A DNA stretch of 60,809 nucleotides, from positions 1-60,809 of the forward strand of contig MCBE01000217.1 of the NCBI GenBank assembly GCA_001723845.1. The letters run 5' to 3'. The position numbers and the translations under genes are program-made. Source of the DNA: Candidatus Altiarchaeales archaeon WOR_SM1_SCG (GTDB lineage: Archaea > Altiarchaeota > Altiarchaeia > IMC4 > WOR-SM1-SCG). The notes below the pieces were generated by a model. That model did not search any database, was not told where the DNA came from, and was given only the letters and a program-made list of their open reading frames with translations. This document shows positions 10,703 through 32,819 of the stretch, piece by piece (the first letter of the stretch is position 1; each line of letters begins with the position of its first letter).

Positions 10703-11125
10703 ATGAACCAGCAAAAAATAAACATAGGAATAGTTGCCGCGGAATTCAACTACGACATAACCTTTGCCATGGTTGAACTTGCAAAAGAGCATGCAAAGTT
10801 TCTTGACGTAAATATTTCAAAAATCGTTAAAGTTCCCGGCGTCTTTGACATGCCATTAGCGGTTAAAAAAATGATCTCCCGAGACGATGTTGACTGCATC
10901 GTAACCCTTGGAACAGTAATTGAAGGGCAAACCGGGCATGATGAAATTGTAATACAGCACGCATCAAGAAAAATCGCCGACCTCGGCGTGGAATATGAAA
11001 AGCCTGTTGCCCTTGGAATTGCAGGTCCCGGGATGAGCCGCCTTGAAGCACACAAAAGGGTTGAATACGCGAAGCGCGCGGTTGAAGCAGCCGTTAAGAT
11101 GGTGAAGGTTTTAAGGGAAGTTTAA
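10703..11125 (+). CDS. ribH: 6,7-dimethyl-8-ribityllumazine synthase
   Basis: IVAAEFN, VPGVFDMP, LGTVIEGQTGHD. Confidence 0.95.
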   Translation: MNQQKINIGIVAAEFNYDITFAMVELAKEHAKFLDVNISKIVKVPGVFDMPLAVKKMISRDDVDCIVTLGTVIEGQTGHDEIVIQHASRKIADLGVEYEKPVALGIAGPGMSRLEAHKRVEYAKRAVEAAVKMVKVLREV

Positions 11126-11178
11126 CCTTAAAAAACCATTGCAGAACAGGGCTACAAAATTTAATTAAAATTCAAAGT

Positions 11179-11229
11179 GTATTCCTGTAAAGGAATACGC
11201 TCCGCAATCGTCGGGGGGTGTTGCCCGAC
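11179..11229. repeat. Double-hairpin motif, copy 2
   Basis: GTATTCCT-gtaa-AGGAATAC then TCGTCGGGGGGTGTTGCCCGAC directly before the ribH duplicate. Confidence 0.7.
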
Positions 11230-11294
11230 TTGAGTATGCGAAGCGCGCGGTTGAAGCAGCCGTTAAGATGGTGAAGGTCATGCGGGAAGTTTAA
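11230..11294 (+). repeat. Displaced copy of ribH 3' end
   Basis: 65 bp matching 11061-11125 including stop; mostly synonymous differences. Confidence 0.95.
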
Positions 11295-11335
11295 TAAAAG
11301 TTTAATAAACTTTAAACGTGAATTAAAATGAACTA

Positions 11336-11491
11336 CATTGGGGCAAGTTCCAATGTATCAAATAAATTTTATTTTTATTTTTTAATCTGGTTTTGGTGTC
11401 GTCCCGGTTGCCATGCCCCTTAATATTTATTTTTATTTTTTAATCTGGTTTTGGTGCCGTTCCTGTTTGACCCCGATGCTCTGCATCGGGG
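11336..11491. repeat. Two palindromes flanking a 58-bp-period direct repeat
   Basis: TACATTGG..CCAATGTA; repeat units ~11368-11409 and ~11426-11467; CCCCGATGC-tct-GCATCGGGG. Confidence 0.75.
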
Positions 11492-11795
11492 AATACTTGA
11501 TTTAACTGTCGTTTAAGTTCTTCATGAATTGTATCTATATTGTTCTCAATACTCTTTAATACTCTTTAATTCTTCATTTACCCCATTAGATGTCACTATT
11601 ACTTATTTTTAAGTTATTAACATTCAGAGATAAAAAAGGTTATTTTAACTTGTTTCACAATTTCATATAATGACCATTAACCAAACTTTTTACTCGTTCA
11701 ACCCATTATTCCAGAGTTAAATCAAACTTTCTGTAAATTAAATATATACATTATTTAAATATTAATACGAGATTTAAAAATAAAAATCTTTCACC

Positions 11796-11958
11796 TTAAA
11801 AAATGTACGACACCTACGCGAGACCAGAGGAACACATAATTGCCGATTATTATGTTGAAAGCACCTACCCGTTAATGAAAATCGGCAGGATGATTGCAGC
11901 AGAGGAATCAACCGGCTCATGGGTAATTTCAGAGCGCGAGACAAAGGAATTGATAGAA
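11796..11958 (+). pseudogene. Displaced copy of 5' end of RuBisCO-family gene
   Basis: Nearly identical to 14018-14180 (first 52 codons). Confidence 0.95.
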
Positions 11959-12012
11959 GAATTAAAAATCAATTTATTTTCTCAAAATTAATAATAATTA
12001 TAATTTGAAATA

Positions 12013-12372
12013 ATGAAACAAGAGATTAAAAATTGGCTAAAAAAAGCAGAGCATGATTTTGTTACATCCAAGGTGAATTTTCAACAGGAAATTTACGACG
12101 CATCTGCCTTTTTCTGCCAGCAGGCAGTGGAGAAGGCACTAAAAGCGTTATACATCCGGAAATTTGAGAAACTCATCAGAACTCATGATCTGGTCTATCT
12201 CGGAAAGAAGGTTAACCTACCTGATGAATTATTGGAATTTTGCGATGAAATATCATCATTTTATATTGAAACAAGGTATCCCGACAGCTACGCTGAGTTT
12301 GAAAAGGACTATGTGGAGGATGCCATAAATAAAGCTGAGGAGGTGATAAAATGGGTGAAAGAAAACATTTAA
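12013..12372 (+). CDS. HEPN domain protein
   Basis: FFCQQAVEKALKA, RTHDL, ETRYPD. Confidence 0.9.
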   Translation: MKQEIKNWLKKAEHDFVTSKVNFQQEIYDASAFFCQQAVEKALKALYIRKFEKLIRTHDLVYLGKKVNLPDELLEFCDEISSFYIETRYPDSYAEFEKDYVEDAINKAEEVIKWVKENI

Positions 12373-12665
12373 TAGAAAACATAAGAAAATTTAAAAACAA
12401 TTTAAACAGGGAAAAAAGAATTGATAAAATCATATTATTCGGTTCAAGAGCCACCGGCAGGTCCCAAAAAGACAGCGATGCGGACTTGATAATCGTTTCC
12501 CCGTTTTTCAGGGAAATGAAATCCGGGAGAGCAAGAGGACTCCACAAATACTGGAACCTTGACATGCCGGTGGATTTTATCTGCTACACGCCGGAGGAGT
12601 TTGAAGAGAAGAGAAAACAGGTGTCGCTTGTTAGATTAGCTGTTGAGGAGGGGATTGAGATATGA
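12351..12665 (+). CDS. Minimal nucleotidyltransferase (MNT)
   Basis: ILFGSRATG..DSDADLII, YTPEEF. Confidence 0.9.
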   Translation: MGERKHLIENIRKFKNNLNREKRIDKIILFGSRATGRSQKDSDADLIIVSPFFREMKSGRARGLHKYWNLDMPVDFICYTPEEFEEKRKQVSLVRLAVEEGIEI

Positions 12666-12735
12666 GAAAAGTTTTGATAATAATATAACTCAATATATAT
12701 ATTTATAATTACTAAGATAGTTATTTTGATAGAAT

Positions 12736-13866
12736 ATGGCACTAATTGATATATTAAAGGAACCTTGGAATCTACTTAATAAACATTCGGCGGTAGGTGT
12801 TTTGATTGGGATAGTGGGTGTTTTGGTAGCGATTATCTCGCTTGTCCTATACATATTGAATAGTACACCAATAGATCCAATTTATGCTACAAGCCCATCG
12901 GAACTAATAGCAAAGACAGGTGAGAATGCTCCTCGCATGACTATCCTATGGGATGGTTCAGAAGTTTCAGATGTTAGGTCTGTAAAAGTTGCCTTTTGGA
13001 ATTCGGGGTCTGAATATATAGATGTCAAGAATATTCCAAAAGATAATCCAATTCAATTTGTACCTTCAGAAAAAGTTGAAATACTATCTGTAGAGTTATT
13101 AAAGTCAAGTAGGGAAAATTTGAAATTTAACACTTCAATCAAAGATGACTCAACATTGGGGCGACAAGTAGTTCAAGTTGACATTGTGGGTGATGAGGCG
13201 ATTGAACGACTGGATGGTGGGCTTTTTAAAGTCTTGTATACTGGAAAAGAAGAAAATGTTGAGTTTTCTGTAAATGGACGCATAAAAGGCGCACCTGAGG
13301 GGTTTAAGAAAAAGGATTGGAACGAAATTCAAAGATCTAAATTTATTAATTTTGGCTTTAGTTTTGTTGCGGGTATTTTTGCTATAATTGGTATCTCTTG
13401 GTACATTATTAGCCCACTTAAAAACGAAATAGAAAAGGGGTTGGATTTGTTTAGCTGGGATGATGTCCCTGGAAACGATAGTGAACACATGATAGAATTT
13501 TTAAAATATGATATGAAAATAGAATGGGTGGAAAATGCAGAAATCAAAAAAAGCGATGATGACAAAGTCATAACTGTTACAAATAGAGAGAACTCCATCG
13601 CATTCAACCTTAAAAAAGAAGAAAACAAAGTAACTCTGAAAATCAATGGTGTGAAGAGTCATGAATACATTTTGAAAGAAGATAAAGGTAATCTAAATAT
13701 ATACAATGATTTCTCTCTTAAAAACATTAGAGATGATCAGGACACATTCGGAAGATTATTGATATCTGCCCTAATATTATTATTTTTCATATATTTATCT
13801 GGCTCAAATATTATTGAATACTTTCATTATTTGGACATTCCCACTTGGCTTATTCACTTGGTATAG
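12736..13866 (+). CDS. Membrane protein (3 predicted TM) carrying an inserted YLFSW-type module
   Basis: Three hydrophobic segments; module lies between TM2 and TM3. Confidence 0.75.
   Translation: MALIDILKEPWNLLNKHSAVGVLIGIVGVLVAIISLVLYILNSTPIDPIYATSPSELIAKTGENAPRMTILWDGSEVSDVRSVKVAFWNSGSEYIDVKNIPKDNPIQFVPSEKVEILSVELLKSSRENLKFNTSIKDDSTLGRQVVQVDIVGDEAIERLDGGLFKVLYTGKEENVEFSVNGRIKGAPEGFKKKDWNEIQRSKFINFGFSFVAGIFAIIGISWYIISPLKNEIEKGLDLFSWDDVPGNDSEHMIEFLKYDMKIEWVENAEIKKSDDDKVITVTNRENSIAFNLKKEENKVTLKINGVKSHEYILKEDKGNLNIYNDFSLKNIRDDQDTFGRLLISALILLFFIYLSGSNIIEYFHYLDIPTWLIHLV
13444..13704 (+). mobile_element. In-frame insertion module, copy 1 (87 codons)
   Basis: DLFSWDDVPGND...KGNLNIY; 48/87 identical to 60390-60650 by manual ungapped alignment; ends 10/14 complementary. 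Confidence 0.65.
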
Positions 13867-14024
13867 AGGTTCATACAAATTTATTAACTCATAAGATGGT
13901 GATTTATTCCAGCGACTTCTCAACATCTGGAAACTGATTAGTACTAATTCTGATGAGAAATAAACTTGTAATTTCAATTAAATTCAGATTCTTTATTTTT
14001 GTTTAAAATTAAATATATTAAAAA

Positions 14025-17246: not shown

Positions 17247-17298
17247 TTTAATTTCTAATTAATTGTATTGAAATCTAATTTTTAAAAATTAATGCACG

Positions 17299-18681
17299 AT
17301 GAGAACACACTATTCAAAACAGGTGACGCCTGATTTAGCCGGTGAAAAAGTAACGCTCTGCGGCTGGGCGCATGAATCAAGAGACATGGGAAAAATAAAA
17401 TTTTTAATTTTGCGAGACCGGGAGGGCGTAATACAGGTGCTCGGTAAAAAAGGCGAGACAAAAGAAGAGATGCTTTCAGCAATTGACAGCATTTCAAGGG
17501 AGTCGGTTGTGAAGGTTACGGGAATCGTTAAAGCCAGCAAAATGGCACCGGGAGGTGTTGAAGTCCTGCCGGAGTCAATTGAAGTAATAAGCGAAGCACT
17601 CTCGCCGCTGCCGCTTGATGTTACGGGAAAAGTCCAGGCAGATCTTGACACACGGCTCAACATGCGGTTTATGGACATCCGAAAGCCGGAAATTACCGCG
17701 ATATTCAGGATTAAAGATAAAATTCTAACAGCAGGAAGGGAATATTTTGAAAAACAGGATGATGAATTTATTGAAATTCACAGCCCGAAGATTATTGCAT
17801 CCGCATCCGAGGGAGGCACGGAATTGTTCCCGATCGCCTACTTTGACAAAGAAGCATTCCTTGCACAGTCGCCGCAGTTATACAAGCAGATGATGATGGC
17901 AACCGGATTTGACCGGGTTTATGAGGTCACAAATTATTTCAGGGCGGAAGAACACGACACATTCAGGCACTTGAACGAGGTTACTGCGTTTGATTCGGAG
18001 CAGGCATTCATCAATGATGAAAACGATGTCATGCAAACGGTTGAAGGGCTTGCGAGAGCCATGCTAACATGCGCCGCGGGATGCGAAAATGAGATTGAAA
18101 TTATAAATAATTATTATAAAAGAGCAAAAATTAAAGATAAAAACGGGCAGACAAAGAAACTTGAAATTAACGCCCCAAAAAAGAATTTTAGAAAAATTAC
18201 CTACGACGAAGCACTTGACCTTCTTTCAGCGGAAGGAAAAGAACTCCCGTGGGGCGAAGACCTTGACACTGAAAGCGAGAAAATATTAGGCAGAATAATC
18301 AGGGAAAAATTCAAAGACGATATTTATTTTATAACAAAATACCCTCTAAAAATTAAGCCGTTTTACACGATGCCTGGTAAAGCCCTTGATGACGAATGCG
18401 CCGATGATTCATATTCCCGCGCGTTTGACCTTGAATACAGGGGTGTTGAAGTGGTTTCCGGGAGCCAGAGGATTCATGATTACAATTTATTGAGCAGGCG
18501 ACTTGAGTATCACAACCTGAACCCGGAGAATTTTAAATCATATTTAAATTCATTCAGGTACGGGATGCCTCCGCACGGCGGATTCGGGCTTGGGATTGAC
18601 AGGATTTTAATGCAGATGTTTGAGGTGAATGTCAGGGAGGTTGTGCTGTTCCCGAGAGACAGGCACCGGCTGACGCCTTGA
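17299..18681 (+). CDS. aspS: Aspartyl-tRNA synthetase (archaeal type)
   Basis: FLILRDREG, LAQSPQLYKQ, FRAE, GMPPHGGFGLGIDR, LFPRD. Confidence 0.97.
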   Translation: MRTHYSKQVTPDLAGEKVTLCGWAHESRDMGKIKFLILRDREGVIQVLGKKGETKEEMLSAIDSISRESVVKVTGIVKASKMAPGGVEVLPESIEVISEALSPLPLDVTGKVQADLDTRLNMRFMDIRKPEITAIFRIKDKILTAGREYFEKQDDEFIEIHSPKIIASASEGGTELFPIAYFDKEAFLAQSPQLYKQMMMATGFDRVYEVTNYFRAEEHDTFRHLNEVTAFDSEQAFINDENDVMQTVEGLARAMLTCAAGCENEIEIINNYYKRAKIKDKNGQTKKLEINAPKKNFRKITYDEALDLLSAEGKELPWGEDLDTESEKILGRIIREKFKDDIYFITKYPLKIKPFYTMPGKALDDECADDSYSRAFDLEYRGVEVVSGSQRIHDYNLLSRRLEYHNLNPENFKSYLNSFRYGMPPHGGFGLGIDRILMQMFEVNVREVVLFPRDRHRLTP

Positions 18682-18734
18682 TCATTCACAAAACATTTTT
18701 TAAACTTGTAATTTAATTTTTAATATAGAAATGT

Positions 18735-18932
18735 ATGATGAAAAAATTCTGGGTTCACAAGGCAGATTCATTTAAGGAAGCCGAGGAATTTGACGGGAAA
18801 TATTATTCGGCAATGTCAGGGGAAGAGCGATTAGAGACAATGCAGTTTTTAAGGGAAATATACTATAAAATAAAAGGAGTTGAGAATGAAAGTAGAAAAG
18901 GACTACGAAGAGTTATTAGGGTTGTTCAATAA
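18735..18932 (+). CDS. Small protein paired with nucleotidyltransferase (TA-like)
   Basis: MSGEERLE motif; overlaps next gene. Confidence 0.65.
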   Translation: MMKKFWVHKADSFKEAEEFDGKYYSAMSGEERLETMQFLREIYYKIKGVENESRKGLRRVIRVVQ

Positions 18933-19338
18933 GAATAAGGTGAGGTATTGCATTGTCGGCGCTTATGCCGTGGCTTTTCATGCTGTTCCCAGATATTCAA
19001 AAGATATGGATATTCTAATTGAACCCGATGTAGAAAACGCTAAAAGAATTATTAAAGCACTCAATGAATTCGGGTTTGGAAGTTTAGATTTAACGGAAAA
19101 GGACTTTATTCAGGAAGGCAAAATTATTCAATTAGGTTATGAACCTGTTAGAATTGATATTTTAACATCTATAGAAGGATGCGGCTTTAAAGAGGTCTGG
19201 GAGAACAAAACTTGCGGCATGTATGGAAAACAAAAAGTGTTTTTTGTCGGAATAGATGAGTTGATAAAAAATAAGAAAGTTTCAGGGCGTAAGCAGGATG
19301 AAATAGATCTGGATATTTTATTATCTGGTAAAAAATAA
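18886..19338 (+). CDS. Nucleotidyltransferase-fold protein
   Basis: IVGAYAVAFH..RYSKDMD, NKKVSGRKQDEIDL. Confidence 0.8.
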   Translation: MKVEKDYEELLGLFNKNKVRYCIVGAYAVAFHAVPRYSKDMDILIEPDVENAKRIIKALNEFGFGSLDLTEKDFIQEGKIIQLGYEPVRIDILTSIEGCGFKEVWENKTCGMYGKQKVFFVGIDELIKNKKVSGRKQDEIDLDILLSGKK

Positions 19339-19392
19339 ATAAGATGAAGACATACAGATAAGAGTATGTGTCCAAAACAATTACTGCCATGT

Positions 19393-19446
19393 AATGTCGG
19401 GGAAGTTGTGCTGTTCCCGGGGGATCGGCACCGTCTGACGCCTTAA
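19393..19446 (+). repeat. Displaced copy of aspS 3' end
   Basis: 54 bp matching 18628-18681 through the stop codon. Confidence 0.9.
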
Positions 19447-19501
19447 AAATTTTAAAAGCCGATTAAATCACGCCAAATAATGTGATAACAGAATCAATAA
19501 A

Positions 19502-21229: not shown

Positions 21230-21286
21230 GAGAGGGAAGGTGAATTTTTAACCTGATTATTAACGATTTTGGTTTGTTTGTTGATG

Positions 21287-22069
21287 CTATGATTTTGATT
21301 TTGCGAGGGCGAGGATTGCTTTGGTTAACCCGTTCACTGCCTGTGTGAAGTTTTCCTGTTGCGCGGTCAGCGTCTCAAGTATTTTCTCTGTTTTCTTTGA
21401 GGTGTTGTCCATGCTTGCAAGTATGTCTTTCATGGTGTCGGAGATTTTGTCGTATTTCATGTCAAGATGCCGGAAGTTTTCGTTCATCTCCGTTCGCATG
21501 CCCTTCGTCTCGTTTTTGACTTCGGCAACGCCTGTGTTCAACCTGGCAAAGTTTTCACCACTTTCTGTTCTGAATTCGTGCATTTCAGTTCGCATGCCCT
21601 TCGTCTCGTTTTTGACTTCGGCAACGCCTGTGTTCAACCTGGCAAAGTTTTCACCACTTTCTGTTCTGAATTCGTGCATTTCAGTTCGCATACCTTTCGT
21701 TTCTGTTTTGACACCTTTCATCTCATTCAACATTCCATGCCCGACATTGACGAATTTATACTGCTGCTCTGCCATAAACCCCGTCCTAAAGGATTCAAAA
21801 GATTTAATCTCGTCCGTATAATCTTGAATATCAACAGAATCAACATTTGCATGTTCCGGGCGGTTTTCTTTATCTTTTGCGAAATCAATAAATCTATTTA
21901 CATTGTCTTCTGATGATTCAATCAAAACTTTGACGCATTGTTTTCCGTCCTGTTTTATGTTCTTTGCGTCAAAGTTTTCAATCCCTAAATCCTCGGCTGA
22001 ATTCATCAAAAACAGTCGGTATCCGATATCATGGACTTTCATACCTTTGATAAAAATTTTCTTTTTCAT
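21287..22069 (-). CDS. Acylphosphatase-like domain + repetitive coiled-coil protein
   Basis: IKGMKVHDIGYRLFL N-terminus; 32-aa repeats. Confidence 0.75.
   Translation of the reverse strand: MKKKIFIKGMKVHDIGYRLFLMNSAEDLGIENFDAKNIKQDGKQCVKVLIESSEDNVNRFIDFAKDKENRPEHANVDSVDIQDYTDEIKSFESFRTGFMAEQQYKFVNVGHGMLNEMKGVKTETKGMRTEMHEFRTESGENFARLNTGVAEVKNETKGMRTEMHEFRTESGENFARLNTGVAEVKNETKGMRTEMNENFRHLDMKYDKISDTMKDILASMDNTSKKTEKILETLTAQQENFTQAVNGLTKAILALAKSKS
21492..21701. repeat. 96-bp coding tandem repeat (~2.2 units)
   Basis: GTTCGCAT recurs at 21492, 21588 and 21684. Confidence 0.95.
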
Positions 22070-22076
22070 GATCTTT

Positions 22077-22304
22077 TTAAGATATTATACTTATGGGAAT
22101 AATAATGGTGCCTGTGCAATTGCGGCAGTTTAAATCGTTAGATACATCCAGGTAGGTGTTCACACCCCTGCTCAAACCAAGAATTAAAGAAAAAATTAAT
22201 AACCCATATACAAATCCTTTAAACCCGCAATTTTGTTTAAATTCCCCCTCCCCGACGGATTGGGGTTCGTTTTTGTTCCCGGTTTTATTAATTATTGTTG
22301 CCAT
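22077..22304 (-). CDS. Small membrane hypothetical protein
   Basis: 75 aa with one hydrophobic segment. Confidence 0.35.
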   Translation of the reverse strand: MATIINKTGNKNEPQSVGEGEFKQNCGFKGFVYGLLIFSLILGLSRGVNTYLDVSNDLNCRNCTGTIIIPISIIS

Positions 22305-22497
22305 TTTTCGTTTAAACTTTCGTTTAATTTTTATTTAAAACATATCCGGGGTCTCCGGCATGCTCACCTATCGCATAGAAATATTACGCAACAGGTCCGG
22401 CACTAAAATCCCTTGTTATATGTAATTTATAGGAATTTAAAGTAATTAAATTAATAATGAGTTAATGATGTGATAAATTAATTTTTGAATACATTAA

Positions 22498-22861: not shown

Positions 22862-25315
22862 ATGGCTTCTGATTCAAATAATTCCGACGGTGAGGAAAAC
22901 AACGAGAAAATCATCCCCCGCAACATTGAAGACGAGATGAAGAAATCCTATATTGATTATTCAATGTCCGTTATTGTCGGAAGGGCACTTCCTGATGTCA
23001 GGGACGGCTTAAAGCCGGTTCACAGGAGAATTCTTTACGCGATGCACGAAGCAGGTATAACTGCAAGTAAGCCGCATAAAAAATCAGCAAGAATTGTCGG
23101 TGATGTTCTTGGGAAATATCATCCTCACGGCGATGCGGCTGTTTATGACACAATGGTTCGTATGGCACAGGACTTCTCACTGCGGTATCCGTTAATTGAC
23201 GGGCAGGGAAATTTCGGAAGCGTTGACGGAGATGCCGCAGCAGCAATGCGTTATACGGAATCCCGGATGGCAAAAATTGCCGAGGAATTACTTGCGGATA
23301 TTGAAAAAGAAACAGTAAATTTTATGCCGAATTACGATGCCTCATTAAATGAACCTGTTGTTCTTCCGGGAAAACTGCCAAATTTATTAATCAACGGCTC
23401 ATCAGGGATTGCAGTCGGTATGGCAACCAACATTCCGCCTCATAATTTAAGTGAAATTATTGACGGAATTATAAAAATCATTGACGAGCCGGAAATAGCA
23501 ATCTCGGAATTAATGGAAATTATTAAAGGTCCTGACTTCCCGACAGCAGGAATCATTCAAGGAACATCCGGGATTATGTCTTATTATGCAACCGGCAGGG
23601 GAAGAATACGACTTCGGGCAAAAGCAGACACAGAAAGTGAGGAGGGAAGAATCATTGTCACAGAACTCCCATACCAGGTGAACAAGGCAAATTTAATTGA
23701 AAATATCGCGCATCTTGTAAAAGACAAAAAGATTGAAGGGATAAGAGACCTAAGAGACGAGAGCGATAGGGAAGGAATGCGAATTGTTATTGAATTAAAA
23801 AGGGATGCTCAGGAAGAAGTTGTTTTAAATCAATTATTTAAACATACTATGATGCAGACAACCTTTGGTGTGATTATGTTAGCACTTGTTGATAACCAGC
23901 CAAAGATTATGGGTCTGATTGAAATAATAAATCACTATTTAGAACACCGGAAAGTTGTTGTTCGTAGGCGAACCGAGTATGAACTAAAAAAGGCAGAAGA
24001 GCGCGCCCATATACTTGAGGGACTGATTATTGCACTTGATAATATTGAGGAAGTCATTAAAATTATCCGCAGTTCAAAAACAGTAGAAATTGCAAAAAAT
24101 GAATTAATGATTAATTTTGAACTCTCGGAAATCCAGGCAAAGGCAATTCTTGACGTGCGGCTTTCAAAACTCACCGGGCTTGAAATTGAAAATGTCAAAA
24201 AAGAATATAATGAACTTCTTGAATTAATTAAAAAATTAAAAGAAATTTTAGCGAGCGAGGAGAAAATTTTAAATATAATAAAGGAGGAACTCGCGGAAAT
24301 TAAAGAAAAATATTGTAAAAAAGATGCGAGAAGAACAAGAATTGATGAATTCTCGGATGATGATGACATTGATGATGAAGATTTAATTCCCGATGAGGAT
24401 GTTGTTGTGACAACCACAAACACCGGATACATCAAGAGAATCCCGATAGACACTTACACAATACAGAAAAGAGGCGGCAAGGGCTTGATCGGCATGAAAA
24501 CAAAAGAAGAGGATTTCATTGTTGACCTTTTCATTGCATCAACCCACGATTATATTTTATTCTTTACAAACAAAGGACAGGTATTCTGGCTGAAAACATA
24601 TAAAATCCCGGCAAGCGGAAGGCATGCGAAAGGCAAAGCAATAATCAATTTAATTCCCCGTCTTGAGGATGATGAAAAAATTAATGCAACAATTCCCGTA
24701 AAGGTCTTTGATGACGAGCATTATCTTATTTTTGCAACAAAGAAGGGAGTTGTAAAAAAGACCGCACTCTCGCAATTCCGGCACCCGAGAATTAACGGGA
24801 TTCGCGCGATAAAACTTGACGAGGGCGACGAAGTTATTGCGACCCTTATGTCAGACGGAACCCGCGAGGTAATAATCGCAACGAAAAACGGGCAGGCATG
24901 TAGGTTTAGAGAGCAGGACACAAGACCAATCGGGAGAAGCACAAGGGGAGTTCGCGGAATACGGCTCAATAAAGGTGATGAAGTTGTCGGTATGGCGGTT
25001 GTTAATGAATCACAAAATTTACTGACAATTACTGAAAAAGGATACGGGAAGCAGTCAATGGTTTCTGCTTACAGGAAGACAAAGAGGGGTGGAAAAGGCG
25101 TTAAAACGATAATTACAAATGAAAGAAACGGTGGAGTTATTTCAATAATTCCTTCATCTGATGCTAATGATGAATTTATTATTATGAGCGAGCAGGGGAT
25201 GGTTATAAGAATTGATGCGAGTAATATCCGTGTTATGGGGAGAAATACGATGGGCGTTCGGATAATGCGGATGAATGAAGGGGATAAGGTTGTTAGTGTT
25301 GCGAAGTTGGATTGA
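22862..25315 (+). CDS. gyrA: DNA gyrase subunit A
   Basis: [30 protein letters not shown], GyrA box QKRGGKG. Confidence 0.98.
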
Positions 25316-25319
25316 AATT

Positions 25320-25793
25320 TTAATTTACATTTTTATCTTCTGTTAGCAATTTCATCTGTTGAGTTCCTATTTTATTTATTTCAATTTTATGTTTTATTTC
25401 AATTTTATATGTTTTATCTTCAAATATCGTATTATATGTTTTATCTTCAAATATCTTACCAAACTGTTGGGGGTTCAGATATGCTCTTACTTTTTTAGTT
25501 AGTCCAAAAATTTCGGTGATTCTCGAAGGATCTATCGGCTCTGGCGTATAAAAAGATTGATCTTGTTCGTGTTGGGTGTCTGGATCAGGTAATACATTTA
25601 ATCTCCTTACATTTATTTTTAAAATAACAAATATAGAACTACTGCTTTTCGGTCTCTTTTTTTGTAGATAAACACCTTTAGGAAAACGGTGGTCTACTTC
25701 CTTTTTATCCTTTGGTCTTTTTGGAATTAAACCCTTAACCATAATAGATGGAAGGTTTTCATACTCCGTTTCGTGATATAAATACCTTTCCAT
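25320..25793 (-). CDS. ADP-ribosyltransferase/Tpt1(KptA)-like fold protein
   Basis: LYHET..NLPSI...GLIP, GVYL, ILKINV, PEPIDPSRI pattern. Confidence 0.55.
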   Translation of the reverse strand: MERYLYHETEYENLPSIMVKGLIPKRPKDKKEVDHRFPKGVYLQKKRPKSSSSIFVILKINVRRLNVLPDPDTQHEQDQSFYTPEPIDPSRITEIFGLTKKVRAYLNPQQFGKIFEDKTYNTIFEDKTYKIEIKHKIEINKIGTQQMKLLTEDKNVN

Positions 25794-26047
25794 TTTAGAT
25801 ATTTTTTATTGGTCTCATTTTATTTATAAAATGTTGATTTATTTTGACAATTTGGGAAACTCTATAATAATTTAGAGATATACTATATTAAACATAGATT
25901 TAATTAAAATTCACAGTGCGGTATAATGGAGTATTTCAGAGCCATACGATGAAATCTTTGAACGAAACGCAGTGGAGTGAAATGATCTGATTTTCTTGTT
26001 ATACTCCATAATTCCTCGCTCCGTTTCCGAGTCATACGAGGAAATCC

Positions 26048-26095
26048 TTTGAGACGAATGTCTCAAACGGACACTCGTCGGGGGTGTTGCCCGAC
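26048..26095. repeat. Double-hairpin motif, copy 3
   Basis: TTTGAGAC-gaat-GTCTCAAA then TCGTCGGGGGTGTTGCCCGAC directly before the gyrA duplicate. Confidence 0.7.
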
Positions 26096-27182: not shown

Positions 27183-27236
27183 TACCAGATATTTTTATAA
27201 TTATTTGTAATATATTATATAATACACAGATAAAAA

Positions 27237-27455
27237 ATGGTATACAAAACAATAAGCATCTCAGGTGAGGTTTATTCAAAACTTCTGGCATTAAAGAGAA
27301 GCAATGAATCTTTTTCGGATTTATTTTTAAGGGTTACAAAAAAGGAAAAACCGAAGTTGAGAAATTTTTACGGAAAATGGAAGATGAGTGACAAAGAAGA
27401 GGAGAGTATCTTAAAGGACATAAATAGTTTGTGGAGCAGTTGGGAAATGGATTAA
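27237..27455 (+). CDS. VapB-type antitoxin
   Basis: KTISIS.EVY.KL...ESFSD. Confidence 0.85.
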   Translation: MVYKTISISGEVYSKLLALKRSNESFSDLFLRVTKKEKPKLRNFYGKWKMSDKEEESILKDINSLWSSWEMD

Positions 27456-27462
27456 TAAAAAG

Positions 27463-27852
27463 ATGAAAATTTTAGACACCGATATTTTAATCAGTATTTT
27501 GAGAGGAAAGAAAGATGCAGAGGATGTTTTGGATTATTTAAGCGGAGAGGATATTGCAATAAGTTCCATCACCGCATTTGAACTATATTACGGTGCATTT
27601 AAGTCAGAAAGAACATCCGAGAATATCAAAGAGGTTGACAGTTTGCTTTCCTCTTACCAGGTTATCAATTTTGATAAGAATGCTTCAAAAGAGGCAGGAA
27701 AAATTCATTCAAAATTAGAAAAATCGGGGAAAGGTATCGGAATAAGAGATGTCATGATCGGGGCAATCTGCCTGTTGAACGATGCGGGTCTGATAACCAG
27801 AAATGTGAGGCATTACAGCAGGATTGAAGGGTTGAGGATTGAGAAGTGGTGA
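27463..27852 (+). CDS. vapC: VapC PIN toxin
   Basis: ILDTDILI, FELYYG, DVMIGA, ITRNVRHY. Confidence 0.9.
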   Translation: MKILDTDILISILRGKKDAEDVLDYLSGEDIAISSITAFELYYGAFKSERTSENIKEVDSLLSSYQVINFDKNASKEAGKIHSKLEKSGKGIGIRDVMIGAICLLNDAGLITRNVRHYSRIEGLRIEKW

Positions 27853-27867
27853 TTTCGCAGCGATACT

Positions 27868-28050
27868 TTAAAGCGACTCTTTATGCCTTTCAGCAATACC
27901 TTTTTTAATCAAGTTACCGATTTCTTCCGCACCCATATCGGTAAGTTCGCTTTTGCCTGTGATTTCATCCATCATTTTAATTTTCTGTGCATACTCAAGC
28001 ATCGCCTGTCGTGCGACCTCACTCCATTTTATTTCAGGGTGTGTTTTTAT
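27868..28050 (-). pseudogene. 5'-truncated antitoxin paralogous to 31472-31711
   Basis: HPEIKWSEVARQAM...KSELTD..AEEIG vs INWSEVARQSF...KSTLTEEEA. Confidence 0.7.
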
Positions 28051-28074
28051 TCTAATATTGTCTTTTCAGGTTAT

Positions 28075-28419
28075 TTATCTTTCTTCAGCACCCCATTTGA
28101 GTTTAAATATACCTAAATTTAACTCTACACCAAAATGTCGCTTATAATTATCTTTATTTTCTAATATATCAAAACCAGGATTTGTTAGTCTAATATCTTT
28201 CCAATTTGATCTTGGAGTTTCGGGAGGAATTGCATCTATAAGCCTTTCATTATAGAGCTTATTCAATGCATTATTTGTCCTTGACCTATTTAATTTTAGC
28301 TTTTTGCGAAGAGCAATACTACTATCCACACTCGAATATTCTTCTCTTATATAATACAACCAAGCCAATATCTTGCCTGCATCCCTACCAGTTAGTTTAT
28401 TTGCCATTTTAGATACCAA
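28075..28419 (-). CDS. Winged-HTH-like hypothetical protein
   Basis: NNALNKLYNERLID...IRLTNPGFDILE. Confidence 0.65.
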   Translation of the reverse strand: MVSKMANKLTGRDAGKILAWLYYIREEYSSVDSSIALRKKLKLNRSRTNNALNKLYNERLIDAIPPETPRSNWKDIRLTNPGFDILENKDNYKRHFGVELNLGIFKLKWGAEER

Positions 28420-28512
28420 ATTTTATGTGTGTTATTTATATATTTGATTATGCATGAAAATATTGAAACAAAAAATTTAAAGATGATAGAGATTTATGAT
28501 AGATACGCATTT

Positions 28513-30837
28513 TTATTTACTATTCTTTTTTAACTTAGTATAGTAATAATAAATTCCAATAACATAAAATAAAAAGCTTAATACACCCATCCCTATCTTG
28601 TACATTATATCGAGGGGTATATAATATAAAACAACAGAAGTGCACAACATAAGAATAGTAGCAAGTAAGCACAAATTTTTATTTCTTTTTATCTTATTAG
28701 ATATTCGCTTCATTTGATCGTAAAATAATAAATTAATAACCCAAAAAATAATAAGGAGTTCAAGTATTATAATCATTATAAAGGCATTGGTGTTAAGACC
28801 CTGTAAGAAAACTATACAATCAAAAAATATGATTACTAAAAGTAATAAACCAATCTTTAATAAATCTGTTGTTCGTGTTAAGTTATCTAATTTCTTATGA
28901 AAATCGTTAATTGTTTTATCTTTTTCACTTAACTTACCTGCTTGATCACCAATTGTTTTATCTTTTTCACTTAACTTACCTGCTTGATCACCAATTGTTT
29001 TATCTTTTTCACTTAACTTACCTTCTTGATCACTAATTGTTTTATCTTTTTCACTTAACTTACCTTCTTGATCACTAATTGTTTTATCTTTTTCTTTCAA
29101 TTTTGATTTAAGTTTTTCATCTTTTTTTACTTTATTTTTGATTTCTTCCATTATTTCATTAGATCCTTCAGGATATTTTTCCAAATCAAAAGCATCGTCA
29201 TCAGGTTTATCAGACTCTTTAGTTATAAGTTCCATGACATAATGGCTACCCATTGTTTTTGCAATTTCTTCGGTGGTTAAGTCTTCGTCATCCATCCAAG
29301 GTCCAATTAACTTTAATTTATCAAAGGTTATAACAGGAGGTACCCTCGTTAATCTGCGGATTAGCAAATCATTAAAAACTTCCATACAATCCTTATTAGC
29401 AATATCTGGAGCTAATAACGTGGAAATCATTTCTATCCATTTTTGAAAGTATATACTCATATGAACGGATCCTTCCCCAAAATATTCTCGGTTTACATAA
29501 TATAAACTTCTATCACAGGTTATAAACCAGTAGTTAGGAATCACAGAGGATTCTTCTTCCTTTTCCCTTAATTTTTCCATTAATAATAAATGATATGCAT
29601 CATGTTCTGCTGTTTTTTTGTTTTTCTTACTTCCCTGCGCTATCACCAATGACGTGAGTTCGTCCATTTCAGATTCTGTATACATACCCTCATAGGATTT
29701 TTCATCAATTGAGATATTGTAAACGTTTTTCAAAATTGATCTGGTTTGTTGCTTTAGTTTCATATAATAAGCATCCCATTTTAATGTTGGATTTTCATAT
29801 TTTTTACTAAAAAAATCCGTAAAAAAAATTGAGGGGAATATCTTTTCAAGTTTGTGATATGTTCTATTATGTAACTTATTTATTTTTGTTTTATATTCTT
29901 GATAAGAATTATTAGAGTGATCTAGAACATCAAAATATTCCTCTTCAGTCCTTTTTGTATATAATACATTTATTCCTAAATCCTTCGTTAATTCTATTAA
30001 TTTTTTGATTCCGAGATGAAAATCGTTATTGATTAATAGCGAAATTGTAACATTTGTATCCAAATATACCACATTTTTTGAAAAGTTCTCTTTTAGAAGC
30101 ATATTACATTCAGGATCAAAATTCAATATCTCAAGTATATAATAACTCTGAGCCAGTGAATATAAATATTTGGACATTTCTATGTTCTGATTGAGAATTA
30201 AATCTTTGATAACACCCATTTCTATATTTTTTAATTCTTCATTTTCAGAACTTACAACTATTTTTTCCAATAATAATTGAAAATCCATACCAACAAAGTA
30301 ATCATAATCATCAGTTTTATGATTTAATATCTTTCCTGCAAAACCAATATCTCTGATATTTGGCCCAATACCTTGCTCGCGAAATAGAATCCCCAATACA
30401 TTTCGAAAATCTGATATAATCCCTCTTTTTTCTTTCATGTCTAATTTTCCGAATCGTTCTTTGATATTTGAAATTAATTTTTGCTCAATATCCATTCTAT
30501 TCGTTTCATATTCCTCTTCATGTTCATCTAATTCTGTTTGTTTATTAGCAGATAACGAATATTTAACTCCACTATATGTTTGATTAGGATTTATATATTC
30601 CCTCTCTTCTAATCTTTTTAGTGCCTCTTTTATTTTGTCTTTGGAAACTTTTTTGATGCCGAGGTTATTCTCGATATTAGATATAATTTCGTTCTCACTT
30701 AGCTTCTCATCCGCACTTTTTAATGCAATCATTAGTAAATAGTCATATAACTCATCTCTTATCTCATCAGTCTCTCGGTTTAAAACAAAAACTTGTAATT
30801 TCATCAACGCCCTTTTGGTTTGCTCCACATCATACAT
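28513..30837 (-). CDS. Large wHTH + PIN-like + repeat + 4TM protein
   Basis: VYLDTNV, AEHDAYH, WFITCDRSL; 14-aa repeats; C-terminal TM segments. Confidence 0.7.
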   Translation of the reverse strand: MYDVEQTKRALMKLQVFVLNRETDEIRDELYDYLLMIALKSADEKLSENEIISNIENNLGIKKVSKDKIKEALKRLEEREYINPNQTYSGVKYSLSANKQTELDEHEEEYETNRMDIEQKLISNIKERFGKLDMKEKRGIISDFRNVLGILFREQGIGPNIRDIGFAGKILNHKTDDYDYFVGMDFQLLLEKIVVSSENEELKNIEMGVIKDLILNQNIEMSKYLYSLAQSYYILEILNFDPECNMLLKENFSKNVVYLDTNVTISLLINNDFHLGIKKLIELTKDLGINVLYTKRTEEEYFDVLDHSNNSYQEYKTKINKLHNRTYHKLEKIFPSIFFTDFFSKKYENPTLKWDAYYMKLKQQTRSILKNVYNISIDEKSYEGMYTESEMDELTSLVIAQGSKKNKKTAEHDAYHLLLMEKLREKEEESSVIPNYWFITCDRSLYYVNREYFGEGSVHMSIYFQKWIEMISTLLAPDIANKDCMEVFNDLLIRRLTRVPPVITFDKLKLIGPWMDDEDLTTEEIAKTMGSHYVMELITKESDKPDDDAFDLEKYPEGSNEIMEEIKNKVKKDEKLKSKLKEKDKTISDQEGKLSEKDKTISDQEGKLSEKDKTIGDQAGKLSEKDKTIGDQAGKLSEKDKTINDFHKKLDNLTRTTDLLKIGLLLLVIIFFDCIVFLQGLNTNAFIMIIILELLIIFWVINLLFYDQMKRISNKIKRNKNLCLLATILMLCTSVVLYYIPLDIMYKIGMGVLSFLFYVIGIYYYYTKLKKNSK
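28908..29093. repeat. 42-bp coding tandem repeat (~4.5 units)
   Basis: KLSEKDKTI(S/G)DQ(E/A)G repeated. Confidence 0.9.
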
Positions 30838-31005
30838 TTTAAGTGATTTTCAAAATATTTAGGGAATGTTTGTATTTTACGTTAAATTTTGATTTGAATG
30901 AACTCGCTATTTTTCTGTTCCCCTAAACTATTAAAGTCCATTAATTAAATATTGAAAATCAAAGTAAAAATATACTCACCAAATGAATAACTCAGTAATT
31001 AAAAT

Positions 31006-31067
31006 TCACGGATGCTCCTCAACCATCCAAAGTCCTTCTTTCTCGCGAAACCCGCGCATCAAATTCA
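31006..31067 (-). repeat. Displaced copy B of argC 3' end (more decayed)
   Basis: Matches 31785-31846 with several non-synonymous changes. Confidence 0.8.
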
Positions 31068-31069
31068 CA

Positions 31070-31471
31070 TCACAATTCTGCAATCTCATGAGTAGGATAA
31101 ACTTTTACAATATTTTGTTTCTTTTTAATGGGTCCGTCATTAGACCAGACCGCAATATTCAATTTCAATGCAAGTGCAATGTAAGGCACATCTTTAACAT
31201 CCGGAGAGATCGCTTTTGCTTTCTCTATAAATGGTTCAATCTCTTCAAATGGTACAAGCACAATTCGTCTCTGGAATAATTCCAATAGTTCATCAAATTC
31301 TCCATCAGTTCTTTCTGTCTTCTTTTTGATAAGTTCTCTGTATTTTTCAAATTAAATGAAAATAAATTCTGGCGCATAGAGATGTAAATCATTCCTGAAC
31401 AGAAGTTCAGATGTAATACCCCTCTTGATTAGTGCTGCAAAAAGTATATTTGCGTCAACAACAAGATCCAT
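31070..31471 (-). pseudogene. PIN toxin with single premature TAA (31352-31354)
   Basis: MDLVVDANILFAALI...APEFIFI*FEKY...DVKDVPYIALAL..VWSND, all one frame. Confidence 0.85.
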
Positions 31472-31711
31472 TTACTCCACCTCGCCTGAAACTGAAACAT
31501 ATCTTTTAGTAAGTTTTTTATTTAAATCCGCACCCAACTTCAATGCTTCTTCTTCCGTGAGTGTGCTTTTTGCCTTAAACTTTCTTAAAAATTCCAAATC
31601 ATCTATTTTTTGCATAAATGATTGTCTTGCTACCTCAGACCAGTTAATTCCAGAGAATGACTCCATCCTGTGTTTTAGTTCACCCGGAACTGCTAATGTT
31701 ATTGTCGCCAT
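31472..31711 (-). CDS. RHH-type antitoxin
   Basis: MATITLAVP.ELK..M...INWSEVAR; abuts the PIN gene. Confidence 0.85.
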   Translation of the reverse strand: MATITLAVPGELKHRMESFSGINWSEVARQSFMQKIDDLEFLRKFKAKSTLTEEEALKLGADLNKKLTKRYVSVSGEVE

Positions 31712-31784
31712 TTTTAATATATTTGTTTAAATTATGTGTATATAAATAAATTATGTGTGAATATATAAATATTAAATTTTTTAA

Positions 31785-32819
31785 TCACGGATGCCCCCCA
31801 ACCACCCCCAGCCCCTCTTTCTCCCTAAACCCGCACATCAAATTCATGTTCTGCACCGCCTGCCCTGATGCACCCTTAATCAAATTATCAATCGCAGACA
31901 TCACAAGGATTCTTCTGCCGTGCAAATCAAAATCAATACCAATATCGCAGTAATTCGTGTTCACGACATTCTTCACATAAGGCACATCGGTAAGTCGTAT
32001 AAACGGTTCATCCTTATAAAATTTTTCATAAATTTCAATTAATTTTTCTTTTTCAAAATTATCCTCCTCGTTTACAAAAACATGAATGTTATTTAAAATT
32101 CCTCTTACAATCGGCATTAATGTCGGCGTGAATGAGACCTTTAAGTCAATATTTGAATATCTTTTAAGCGCGCTTTCTATTTCAGGTCTGTGCCTGTGGT
32201 CTGTTGTCTTGTACGGTTTTAAGTTTTCATATACTTCCGAGAAATGGAGAAAATTGCTTAAAGCCGCTCCCGCACCTGATGTTCCTGACTTTGCGTCAAC
32301 CACAATTTTATTTAAATCAAATTTACCTTTAAATTTTTCACTCAAAAGCGGGGCAATTCCAAGAACCGCTGCCGTGACATAGCATCCCGGATTTGCGACA
32401 AGAATTGAATTTTTTATTTTATCCCTGAAAAGTTCAGGCAAGCCGTAAGCTGCTTTATTCAAGAGTTCCGGGCATTTGTGAACGAGTTTATAAACCTTCT
32501 CATAAATTTCTTTTTCAAGCCGGAAGTCGGCACTCATATCAATAACCTTAATCCCCCGCTCAAGCAGCCCGGGGATAATTTCCATTGCTTTACCGTTTGG
32601 CGTGCAGGTGAAAACAACATCCGAATCAATTTCCTTGATTTTCGGGTTTACAAATTTTTCACCGTAAATATTTTTTAAATTCTCATGTACGGAGGAAACC
32701 GGTTTTCCTTTATACACTCTTGATGTGGGAATTATTTTTTCAATTTCATTATGATTCACCAGAAGCCGTAAAAGTTCGCTTCCCGTATAGCCCGATGCCC
32801 CGATAATTGTAACTTTCAT
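31785..32819 (-). CDS. argC: N-acetyl-gamma-glutamyl-phosphate reductase
   Basis: [44 protein letters not shown]. Confidence 0.97.
   Translation of the reverse strand: MKVTIIGASGYTGSELLRLLVNHNEIEKIIPTSRVYKGKPVSSVHENLKNIYGEKFVNPKIKEIDSDVVFTCTPNGKAMEIIPGLLERGIKVIDMSADFRLEKEIYEKVYKLVHKCPELLNKAAYGLPELFRDKIKNSILVANPGCYVTAAVLGIAPLLSEKFKGKFDLNKIVVDAKSGTSGAGAALSNFLHFSEVYENLKPYKTTDHRHRPEIESALKRYSNIDLKVSFTPTLMPIVRGILNNIHVFVNEEDNFEKEKLIEIYEKFYKDEPFIRLTDVPYVKNVVNTNYCDIGIDFDLHGRRILVMSAIDNLIKGASGQAVQNMNLMCGFREKEGLGVVGGHP

Follow-up and report, generated by a model that had tools for sequence, protein, structure and literature searches.

The window analysed here is the whole 60,809-nt contig C217 of a 300-contig, 2.55-Mb metagenome-assembled genome of Candidatus Altiarchaeales archaeon WOR_SM1_SCG (G000; 37% G+C, 74% complete). 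It contains seven direct duplicates of 52-293 nt and 84-96% identity, each made up of an intact housekeeping gene and a displaced copy of its end (a stump), and in each an insert of 0.1-4.6 kb bridges the distance from the gene-attached copy to the stump. On balance, we favour the view that the seven are displacement scars, left when an imported gene end with its cargo joined the resident gene, and that two routes produced them, one linked to a short two-hairpin element that we call E and one lacking it. The copies are allelic, E abuts the displaced end without a gap and in a single orientation, the target bases next to E share a motif, E is conserved and structured, and no recombinase is encoded in cis.

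An earlier sequence-only reading had pointed out the duplicates, and they were recovered both by a repeat search of the window and by self-blastn of the whole assembly. Genes and cargo were labelled with Pfam, and defence and toxin-antitoxin genes also with PADLOC; Pfam agrees with most of the toxin-antitoxin and defence-type labels that the same reading had given to the DNA between the copies. Its observation that the region lacks an integrase holds as well, since neither Pfam annotation of 31 window open reading frames (ORFs) nor a PF00589 search detected a recombinase gene on the contig.

Displaced gene ends and element E

Two of the stumps adjoin E. The intact ribH gene (6,7-dimethyl-8-ribityllumazine synthase; 10703..11125, plus strand; Pfam DMRL_synthase, E-value 6e-36) ends in 65 nt (11061-11125) that recur on the plus strand at 11230-11294 with 90.8% identity; the stump begins immediately 3′ of E and closes with the same TAA as the gene. 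Similarly, the last 122 nt (25199-25320) of intact gyrA (817 aa; 22862..25320, plus strand; Pfam DNA_topoisoIV, E-value 7e-174, with gyrase C-terminal repeats) recur on the plus strand at 26096-26217 (89.3%), again flush with E. The protein encoded by this stump is 97% identical to GyrA residues 779-817, whereas the DNA is only 89% identical.

The remaining pairs, at the RuBisCO-family gene, aspS, gltX and argC (two stumps), form the E-less class of the window. The RuBisCO large-chain family gene (14025-15239, plus strand; Pfam RuBisCO_large, E-value 8e-74) is intact and has its 5′ end duplicated: the gene copy lies at 14018-14184 and the stump at 11796-11962 (plus strand, 168 nt, 96.4%), where a 62-aa ORF (11803-11991) still matches RuBisCO_large_N (E-value 8.6e-4) and the inner boundary is without E. 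Intact aspS, encoding an archaeal-type class II aspartyl-tRNA synthetase (17299..18686, plus strand; Pfam tRNA-synt_2, E-value 3e-85), shares 52 nt of its 3′ end (18628-18679) with a plus-strand stump at 19393-19444 (86.5%), which the window repeat search reported as 59 nt at 83% (18628-18686 and 19393-19451). For intact gltX, encoding an archaeal/eukaryal-type glutamyl-tRNA synthetase (19502..21229, plus strand; Pfam tRNA-synt_1c, E-value 3e-67), the duplicated 3′ end is 293 nt long (20933-21222 and stump 22475-22765, plus strand, 84.3%), and the stump keeps an open frame (ORF 22485-22772). The argC gene (N-acetyl-gamma-glutamyl-phosphate reductase family; 31785-32819, minus strand; Pfam Semialdhyde_dh and Semialdhyde_dhC_1), also intact, has two minus-strand stumps of its 3′ end. 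The outer one (27035-27182) matches 31764-31911 over 148 nt (93.2%) and extends about 21 nt past the stop codon; the inner one (31006-31067) matches 31785-31846 over 62 nt (83.9%) and begins right at the stop codon of a broken PIN gene.

The same anatomy recurs elsewhere in the genome, as self-BLAST of the assembly demonstrates. Same-contig blastn pieces of at least 40 nt lying within 10 kb of each other numbered 701 in direct and 28 in inverted orientation, a count that includes intragenic tandem repeats, and this imbalance indicates duplication beyond chance. When 672 local direct pairs were sorted, 391 were tandem repeats inside one ORF, 34 were likely tandem paralogues, 172 were of other kinds, and in 75 only one of the two copies covered a long ORF's end. 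These 75 candidate pairs, spread over many contigs, stem from a crude ORF caller and are uncurated, so that they include a CRISPR array and a few paralogues.

The divergence between the copies is mainly synonymous. Among the 64 of the 75 pairs with at least 10 comparable codons, differences at codon positions 1, 2 and 3 numbered 204, 131 and 497, and the ratio of the proportions of non-synonymous and synonymous differences (pN/pS) was 0.21 (bootstrap 0.16-0.27). It was 0.145 (0.07-0.19) for the 20 E-linked pairs and 0.19 (0.03-0.31) for six window pairs, and stumps contained 3 stop codons per 2779 codons. Individual stumps in the window gave synonymous/non-synonymous differences of 4.5/1.5 (ribH), 5/2 (aspS, 19393..19451), 19.5/27.5 (gltX), 11/1 (gyrA) and 9/0 (outer argC). 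Duplication in place followed by free decay of the stump would be expected to give a pN/pS of about 0.5 or higher. Because the observed differences are mainly synonymous, the copies appear to be diverged functional alleles and not duplicates decaying in place; judged from these substitutions, most of the divergence probably arose while both copies worked as gene ends in separate lineages. The data fit either a foreign gene end brought by the insertion or a later allelic replacement of the gene copy.

Element E has a recognizable build. Both the ribH and the gyrA stump are directly preceded by ...CTCGTCGGGG(G)GTGTTGCCCGAC. In type A, an AT-rich flank (AAAATTCTAA) is followed by hairpin P1, a linker of 7-8 nt (yATTCTC) and hairpin P2; P1 is closed by GUG...CGC around a freely varying stem, and P2 reads GTCGGG-loop-CC(C)GAC. 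Type B ends in CAACCTT-loop-AAGGTTG. The ribH copy (about 11164-11229, plus strand) comprises the AT-rich 5′ flank, the P1 strands GUGUAUUCC and GGAAUACGC, the linker and a P2 (GUCGGG...CCCGAC) ending at 11229; its minimum-energy fold contains both hairpins (z -3.66) and its profile match covers 11167-11229. At gyrA a long variant occupies about 25900-26095, with the P2 hairpin GTCGGGGGTGTTGCCCGAC ending at 26095. Copies measure roughly 50-200 nt and are polar, and regular expressions identified 75 of them in G000 (46 of type A, 29 of type B).

The position of E relative to the stump is precise. Its end falls within -10 to +8 nt of the inner boundary of the stump in 20 of the 75 candidate pairs, exactly at that boundary in 10, and in all 20 it is the stump, not the gene copy, that E adjoins; the figure of 20 is a lower bound, as the regular expression missed the ribH pair and a pair on contig C30, both of which are E-linked by reading. 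Stumps of 3′ ends show the order cargo, E, stump, and stumps of 5′ ends the order stump, reverse complement of E, cargo. The polarity is thus the same for both kinds, and the hairpin end of E always lies at the gene-interior breakpoint. Consistently, the 60 nt 3′ of E were duplicated upstream within 8 kb for 46 of 70 testable copies in G000, compared to 5 of 70 control 60-mers taken 300 nt farther on. Dozens of distinct genes, as well as tRNA genes, are joined to E (the stumps after E on contig C300 are tRNA 3′ parts). Often E stands a few nucleotides 3′ of a stop codon in sense orientation. Some inserts of 53-150 nt consist of E only, and tandem arrays of E plus stump occur on contigs C236 (four units of 129 nt), C98, C222 and C283. 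A further copy in the window (2098-2145), with the AT-rich flank ATTTGAATTTGAATTT, lies 13 nt past the stop codon of a 464-aa TPR gene (691-2085); the genome-wide listing of E showed no duplicated flank upstream of it.

The bases immediately 3′ of E belong to the target gene, and the gene copy has the same bases. Across 69 distinct flanks from G000, positions 1-8 after E approximate T/A-K-K-K-A-A-A-T: an A stands at position 7 in 52 flanks (chi-square p 5e-12 with random positions in gene 3′ ends as the reference, a value that overstates the case because flanks from related loci are non-independent), C occurs once at position 2 and A twice at position 4. This preference is common to types A and B, holds in 42 G+C-richer flanks, and reappears in metagenome flanks, 35 of 53 distinct sequences having A at position 7. 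Since the junction is precise and polar and has a target preference, it argues for an enzyme rather than random end joining. At the E-less junctions the mean motif score was 0.96, below the 1.45 of controls, and so no hidden E-type site is suggested there. Recognition through pairing of the 5′ flank of E with the target was rejected, as no copy-specific complementarity was present (mean duplex energy between 5′ and 3′ flanks -2.19, versus -2.18 for permuted flanks). Reading of the junctions revealed no short target duplication at E.

The order-wide comparison set comprised 49 Altiarchaeales genomes from 26 genera, in which G000 is the sole member of its family; its nearest genomes share merely 57-63% protein identity, and the closest relatives of its AspS, at 59-63% identity, belong to Candidatus Altiarchaeota genomes. 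Allowing at most one mismatch, a 20-mer of E (TCTCGTCGGGAAWYTCCGAC), which catches only one E subtype, was found in 16 of the 49 genomes and 12 of the 26 genera (reversed control, 0), with 26 copies in G000 and 1-5 in each other positive genome. The flank was again duplicated just upstream at 4 of 12 loci from other genomes. A metagenome collection yielded 77 E loci (84 matches, of which a few, from unrelated and G+C-rich surroundings, appear to be chance hits); 26 of 69 testable matches had a duplicated flank, and several flanks were tRNA halves, with a tRNA fragment 3′ of E at loci L164, L176, L184 and L196. Two single loci stand apart: at L177 (39-79) two head-to-head copies of E have their hairpin ends one base apart, and at L098 (G027:C16) the first base of a complete tRNA gene is the exact end of E.

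Both hairpins appear in the minimum-energy fold of 15 of 20 copies drawn from 12 genomes. An uninterrupted P1 helix of at least 6 bp, anchored before the linker, forms in 66 of 81 distinct copies compared to 133 of 405 shuffles, and its 37 distinct stem sequences include several Watson-Crick pair types per position. Rfam has no family matching E at the gathering threshold or at E-values up to 10, and the 20-mer has no exact match among IMG/VR viral contigs, which gives no viral carrier in that collection. At loci L164, L176, L214 and L184, E occupies what appears to be a single orthologous locus with tRNA, NUDIX and thioredoxin-like genes, although the neighbouring proteins are only 30-46% identical between lineages; the E found there is either an old retained copy or the product of a recurrent hot spot.

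A proposed mechanism and its rivals

We propose a model in which a segment made up of a replacement gene end and cargo joins the resident gene. The gene would stay intact with an imported, mostly synonymously different end, the resident end would be pushed outward as a stump, and repeated events would stack stumps, as at argC. In the first route, to which we assign ribH, gyrA and no fewer than 20 of the 75 pairs, E forms the distal end of the segment, and its 3′ end is joined precisely inside the resident gene. Here, E lying behind a gene may recombine with a pseudo-site in the gene end (T-K-K-K-A-A-A-T-like) through a site-selective enzyme encoded elsewhere, releasing a circle of gene end, cargo and E that would necessarily carry the gene end. 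Such a circle would then use this pseudo-site to enter the gene's counterpart in another chromosome, restoring the gene and displacing the resident end. The model explains why the two copies share a boundary, why the junction is flush and the gene intact, why targets are many and no integrase is present, and why stumps stack.

The second route is assigned to the RuBisCO-family, aspS, gltX and both argC stumps because neither E nor the motif is present at these five duplicates. The segment would be fixed by homologous recombination in the gene end, either when a circle entered by a single crossover or when a linear fragment underwent homology-facilitated illegitimate recombination. A homology anchor remains the most likely reading of the five, and the absence of the motif from their junctions is compatible with the illegitimate variant. 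What we infer is the enzyme, the circle, the transfer direction and the whole of this second route. The sequence-only reading had envisaged donor DNA anchored by homology in a conserved gene, with its other end joined illegitimately or by a trans-acting enzyme. Import by homology fits the allelic duplicates (pN/pS 0.21), but a random illegitimate joint does not fit the E class; for that class the flush E and the 8-nt motif favour the enzyme, although none was found. The further suggestions that the route is general and that essential genes are preferred as such drew no evidence, and the targets include tRNA genes and non-essential genes.

In G000, at 74% completeness, there were no matches to PF00239 (resolvase), PF01797 (Y1 HUH transposase) or PF07282 (TnpB), and no recombinase or transposase was present among 53 ORFs from 20 other brackets, that is, pairs with the DNA between their copies. 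Neither G000 nor the 77 metagenome loci showed a recurrent enzyme beside E: the only shared cluster at E in G000 (five contigs) comprised pentapeptide-repeat proteins (two members) and an MmeI-like methylase (one), and the recurrent neighbours in the metagenome loci were syntenic NUDIX and thioredoxin-like host genes, so that a cis-encoded enzyme was rejected in both. A partitioned integrase of the SSV type was also considered, as about 25 scattered copies of 30-44 N-terminal residues of the 357-aa recombinase of contig C49 occur in the assembly, and was discarded when they were recognized as copies of one end of an IS4-like insertion sequence (IS). The right end of that element occupies window positions 1-648, with the C-terminal part of a DDE transposase at 3-602 and a terminal repeat at 629-648 (the reverse complement of AACAGGGAGTTTCACAGCCC); this end, 648-661 nt long and 99.5-100% identical, is found at the ends of at least 22 contigs including the window. 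The assembly therefore breaks at this element, and the C49 recombinase ORF merely runs into it. Contig C49 itself is a 4.9-kb piece with the intact 357-aa tyrosine recombinase and four further ORFs, ends in an intron fragment, and may be a mobile element.

Mechanisms based on retroelements or guide RNAs were rejected as well. RVT_1 matches are present in 6 of the 49 genomes and absent from all 15 E-positive ones besides G000, whose three matches lie on other short contigs; RVT_1 therefore does not co-occur with E, and an origin of E as a group II intron relic or through target-primed reverse transcription was rejected. Group II intron copies with a reverse transcriptase are carried by the short contigs C130, C135 and the end of C49, and C130 has no E-like end. 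E does start with GUG and end with AC, but it measures only about 50-65 nt and has no Rfam match. A diversity-generating retroelement was dismissed because adenines are not favoured, A being the stump base in 158 of the 560 mismatches, and RVT_1 lies on other contigs. Ends of the IS200/IS605 or TnpB-associated type, and a TnpB-like guide-RNA scaffold with the stump as guide, were set aside given the absence of PF01797 and PF07282 matches noted above. Finally, a gene drive with a "recoded rescue" would leave the gene copy unprotected, since the first 20 nt of the stump equal the gene copy in many pairs.

Several observations weigh against import and displacement by E. Reading of the boundaries revealed no E at the RuBisCO-family, aspS, gltX and both argC duplicates, so that, with five of the seven window duplicates E-less, the finding depends for the most part on the second and less specific route. 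The target motif is loose, the ribH site scores low, and the related flanks inflate its p-values. Neither a circle junction nor an empty site was seen, the nearest genomes being too distant to be searched for empty sites. In contigs assembled by Logan from four public runs of four studies, the best-matching of which may be the source sample, joints of the "goes back" or "opposite strand" kind at 11181, 11767, 16572 and 25966-26071 were rejected as circles, as multi-copy E explains them. All six tyrosine-recombinase (PF00589) matches in G000 lie away from E, and none is on the window contig. The family of the 418-aa recombinase on contig C164 is present in 7 of 15 other E-positive and 7 of 33 E-negative genomes, which in these incomplete genomes is a hint at most and too weak to name the enzyme; for the C49/XerA-like family the figures are 8 of 15 and 16 of 33. 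The low pN/pS would also be expected from later allelic overwriting of the gene copy. Some E-linked pairs are 100% identical (58 nt on C55, 43 nt on C98, 160 nt on C236), and duplication in place explains these three equally well. In addition, 20 invariant bases across families and one orthologous tRNA locus could point to a host function and not to mobility.

Insertion in place with a long target duplication, in which E with or without cargo enters between staggered breaks separated by 50-500 nt and gap filling yields two initially identical copies, is the rival we take most seriously, though we consider it unlikely. A later step would overwrite the gene copy with diverged alleles from the population and leave the stump frozen. 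Besides the E-only inserts with identical duplicates, the tandem arrays of E plus stump, such as the four 129-nt units on C236, fit such events, the population is diverse (many run contigs are 90-99% alike), and in the consulted part of PMC2853133 the process is known for bacterial restriction-modification genes. However, with a pN/pS of 0.145 in E-linked pairs, later allelic replacement would have to supply almost the entire divergence and stump decay hardly any; stump stop codons are few, and neither the constant placement of cargo between gene copy and E nor the existence of E-less pairs is explained. Worn-down integrative elements, which would have lost the integrase and most genes and kept E as the remnant of an attachment-site arm, are improbable. 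Their anatomy equals that of attL and attR in elements targeting tRNA or protein-gene ends, tRNA fragments do lie 3′ of E (C300 and the four metagenome loci), and G000 has its six tyrosine-recombinase matches. Yet no integrase or fragment of one occurs in the window or in the 53 ORFs of the other brackets, many inserts are E alone, and one E family serves dozens of genes whereas an integrase family keeps to one site; the scattered integrase N-terminal pieces, as described, are the IS4-like end.

We give similarly low weight to E as a host element (a 3′ untranslated region, terminator, processing hairpin or protein-binding site) without an enzyme of its own, at which breakpoints would pile up through fork stalling, template switching or protection from resection. 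This would suit the invariant bases, the one to five copies in most genomes, the orthologous tRNA/NUDIX/thioredoxin-like locus in diverged lineages, the sense orientation of E shortly after stop codons, and the G-U-compatible closing pair of P1, which suggests RNA. Against it stand the base-exact junction in 10 of 20 pairs, a target side with its own motif common to two E types with different hairpins, and the 75 copies defined by regular expression in G000, compared to 1-5 20-mer matches in other genomes; moreover, many assemblies have contigs that break at E. Chimeric joins of strain variants, which the sequence-only reading had named as the outcome that would undo its proposal, are very improbable. 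The bin is fragmented and incomplete, the population holds many variants, and none of the four runs has a contig that covers a whole bracket, from unique gene sequence through both copies to the far flank. Partial support is nevertheless broad: contigs from 18640 or 18889 to 21000 join the aspS cargo and stump to gltX in three of four runs (the aspS-cargo contig of the fourth stops at 19661, inside gltX), and in all four the gyrA end is joined to its cargo (25276-26014, starting at 25280 in one run) and VapBC to the outer argC stump (from 27122-27153 through about 27822). Because E plus stump recurs in other assemblies (4 of 12 loci from other genomes, 26 of 69 in metagenomes), a chimera is unlikely, and chimeras would neither set a conserved element flush with the stump nor yield a target motif. 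Taken together, these comparisons leave import and displacement as the reading that we favour.

Cargo and neighbouring features

The inserts differ in content and size. At ribH the 104-nt insert (11126..11229, plus strand) is gene-free and contains E. The RuBisCO bracket (11963..14017, plus strand) holds a HEPN gene (12013-12372), a nucleotidyltransferase gene (12351-12665; PADLOC PDC-S09) and a 376-aa ORF (12736-13866) with no Pfam match. In three of the four runs 12669 is joined directly to 14021, skipping the last of these, so that part of the population has the HEPN and nucleotidyltransferase cargo without the 376-aa ORF. Summed contig depth, a poor basis for ranking, is lower over 12334-14334 and over 27675-30999, which hints that these cargos are absent from some cells. 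The aspS cargo (18687..19392, plus strand), which is without E, has 65-aa and 152-aa ORFs with only weak DUF2292 and nucleotidyltransferase-like matches. That of gltX (21230..22474, minus strand), likewise without E, has a 75-aa ORF and a 260-aa acylphosphatase-fusion ORF (21287-22069) with an internal tandem repeat of two 96-nt units (21479-21670).

The gyrA cargo (25321..26095) consists of a 157-aa ORF on the minus strand (25320-25793) followed by the long E variant; the "ART-like" label given to this ORF by the sequence-only reading does not stand, as it rests on a PARP match (E-value 0.009) under the Pfam cut-off. In the outer argC cargo (27183..31005) both Pfam and PADLOC recognize VapB (27237-27455) and a PIN protein (27463-27852), alongside small ORFs, one with a weak Csa3-like match, and a 774-aa repeat protein (28513-30837, minus strand) that has weak PIN_12/MC2 matches and five 42-nt tandem repeats at 28867-29118, 80-98% alike. 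The inner argC cargo (31068..31763, minus strand) comprises a 79-aa ORF (31472-31711) and the second PIN gene (Pfam PIN_2, E-value 5e-9), which is interrupted by an in-frame stop into pieces at 31225-31392 and 31070-31285. Elsewhere in the genome, the 53 ORFs of 20 other brackets include SIR2, type IIG and TdeIII restriction-modification, ParE, STAND NTPases, Mrr, an AbiEii-like ATPase, Schlafen/AlbA_2, two pairs of retropepsin-like and DUF5678 proteins, surface proteins and one molybdopterin oxidoreductase operon.

Three further features lie near the region. The 1-kb gene-poor gap between a MoxR-type ATPase gene and aspS (16260-17298) has minus-strand modules related to the long E variant (about 16518-16575), an ORF-like stretch broken by a stop (16960-17250) and, over 16336-17002, an approximately 4-fold higher summed contig depth in all four runs. 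Just beyond argC, a direct repeat (33154-33722 and 33797-34365, 86% over 569 nt) reflects a tandem duplication of two KaiC-like DUF7504 genes (33156-33734 and 33799-34440) with no gene-end stump. A 71-nt direct repeat (34535-34605 and 35621-35691, 83%) flanks a 238-aa ORF without matches, has one copy within the 3′ third of a pentapeptide-repeat/ion-channel ORF (35391-36419, minus strand), and may be a further, partial displacement scar.

Known systems and a possible class of gene cassettes

Insertion with long target duplication was reportedly described by Nobusato et al. in 2000. In the sections consulted of Furuta, Abe and Kobayashi 2010 (PMC2853133), restriction-modification genes are flanked by long, variable direct target repeats of more than 30 bp and up to about 400 bp, often overlapping a gene 3′ end; transposases and integrases are absent, most cases come from naturally competent species, and no archaeal case survived the screen. 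The window repeats (52-293 nt, all above 30 bp) and the brackets without a mobility gene resemble that system as far as those sections describe it. In contrast, the repeats here are allelic and not copies of one target, and the junction carries a conserved element and a target motif, neither of which those sections report. In the part drawn on here, Kirchberger et al. 2017 (PMC5361080) describe C-terminal displacement in Rhs/contact-dependent inhibition proteins and in effector-immunity modules of the type VI secretion system through homology-facilitated illegitimate recombination: a module anchored by a conserved upstream stretch replaces the gene end, the old end and its partner gene are pushed downstream, and repeated displacement produces arrays of orphan ends; its reference list includes de Vries and Wackernagel 2002 and Prudhomme et al. 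2002. In comparison with that account, new ends likewise replace old ones at our loci, the old are pushed downstream and events stack. However, the parts displaced there are polymorphic toxin tips under diversifying selection, whereas here they are housekeeping ends under purifying selection, the new end is functionally the same, and about a third of the events have a dedicated hairpin element.

Integron cassettes are recombined by IntI at a folded attC site, including insertion at secondary sites. Like them, the present inserts are promoter-poor and often carry toxin-antitoxin or defence genes. E also shares with attC a structured, strand-specific end with covarying stems, a few fixed core bases and a crossover at the 3′ edge, downstream bases that come from the target with a loose consensus, and possibly an enzyme acting in trans, as in integrase-less attC clusters. 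Unlike attC, judged by reading alone, E consists of two hairpins, ends in CCGAC and lacks the R′′/R′ cores (RYYYAAC ... GTTRRRY). Unlike in integrons, no attI platform and no IntI are apparent beside arrays, and the cassettes are scattered in gene ends with a replacement gene end. Short tandem arrays of E plus stump do exist, and no recombinase lies near E in G000 or at the 77 metagenome loci. Ghaly et al. 2022 (PMC9668308) describe integrons in archaea, and in the text consulted Altiarchaeota serve only as the tree root.

Other mobile elements share single features with these loci. Cis-mobilisable elements are integrase-less derivatives of islands at tRNA or protein-gene ends that are moved in trans. 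As in integrase-borne islands, a segment brings its own gene-end copy and restores the gene, leaving the old end as a direct repeat, and partial copies stack; in contrast to such islands, no integrase lies in or beside the examined brackets, there are dozens of targets, and minimal units are about 50-150 nt. MITEs (miniature inverted-repeat transposable elements), REP/BIME and Correia elements resemble E in being short, multi-copy, hairpin-forming, non-coding and situated at gene ends. Unlike MITEs, E is polar, lacks terminal inverted repeats and is tied to long allelic duplicates and cargo. Among archaea, Candidatus Altiarchaeum hamiconexum reportedly carries conserved MITEs at the highest density (PMC11602168, in the portion consulted), and the conserved-MITE table of that paper may list E-like repeats. 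In the main texts covered, we found no description of a two-hairpin element flush with displaced gene ends. Scars of this general type are thus known from bacteria, and a cis element, E, at about a third of the events is apparently undescribed.

More tentatively, E may define a new, platform-less class of gene cassettes in Altiarchaeales, recombined in trans with loose pseudo-sites in gene ends; we regard this as possible but less than probable. Two results are of practical use: synonymous-biased divergence between gene end and stump can tell import from duplication in place, and sites of E act as contig break points in metagenome assembly. As a lead, E would offer a cis bait for the enzyme, predicted circle junctions and a searchable signature (E flush with a gene stump). 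How archaea acquire and shuffle defence and toxin-antitoxin genes without plasmids, proviruses or integrases at the locus is poorly understood. Here, one 2.5-Mb genome appears to hold dozens of acquisitions at core-gene ends, about a third of which share a structured element and a target motif. If the cassette reading is true, the circle would always hold a "rescue" gene end and could insert only where it repairs that gene. Defence and toxin-antitoxin genes would then have docking sites spread over the ends of conserved genes and tRNA genes, a system doing in archaea what integrons do, with no integron involved.

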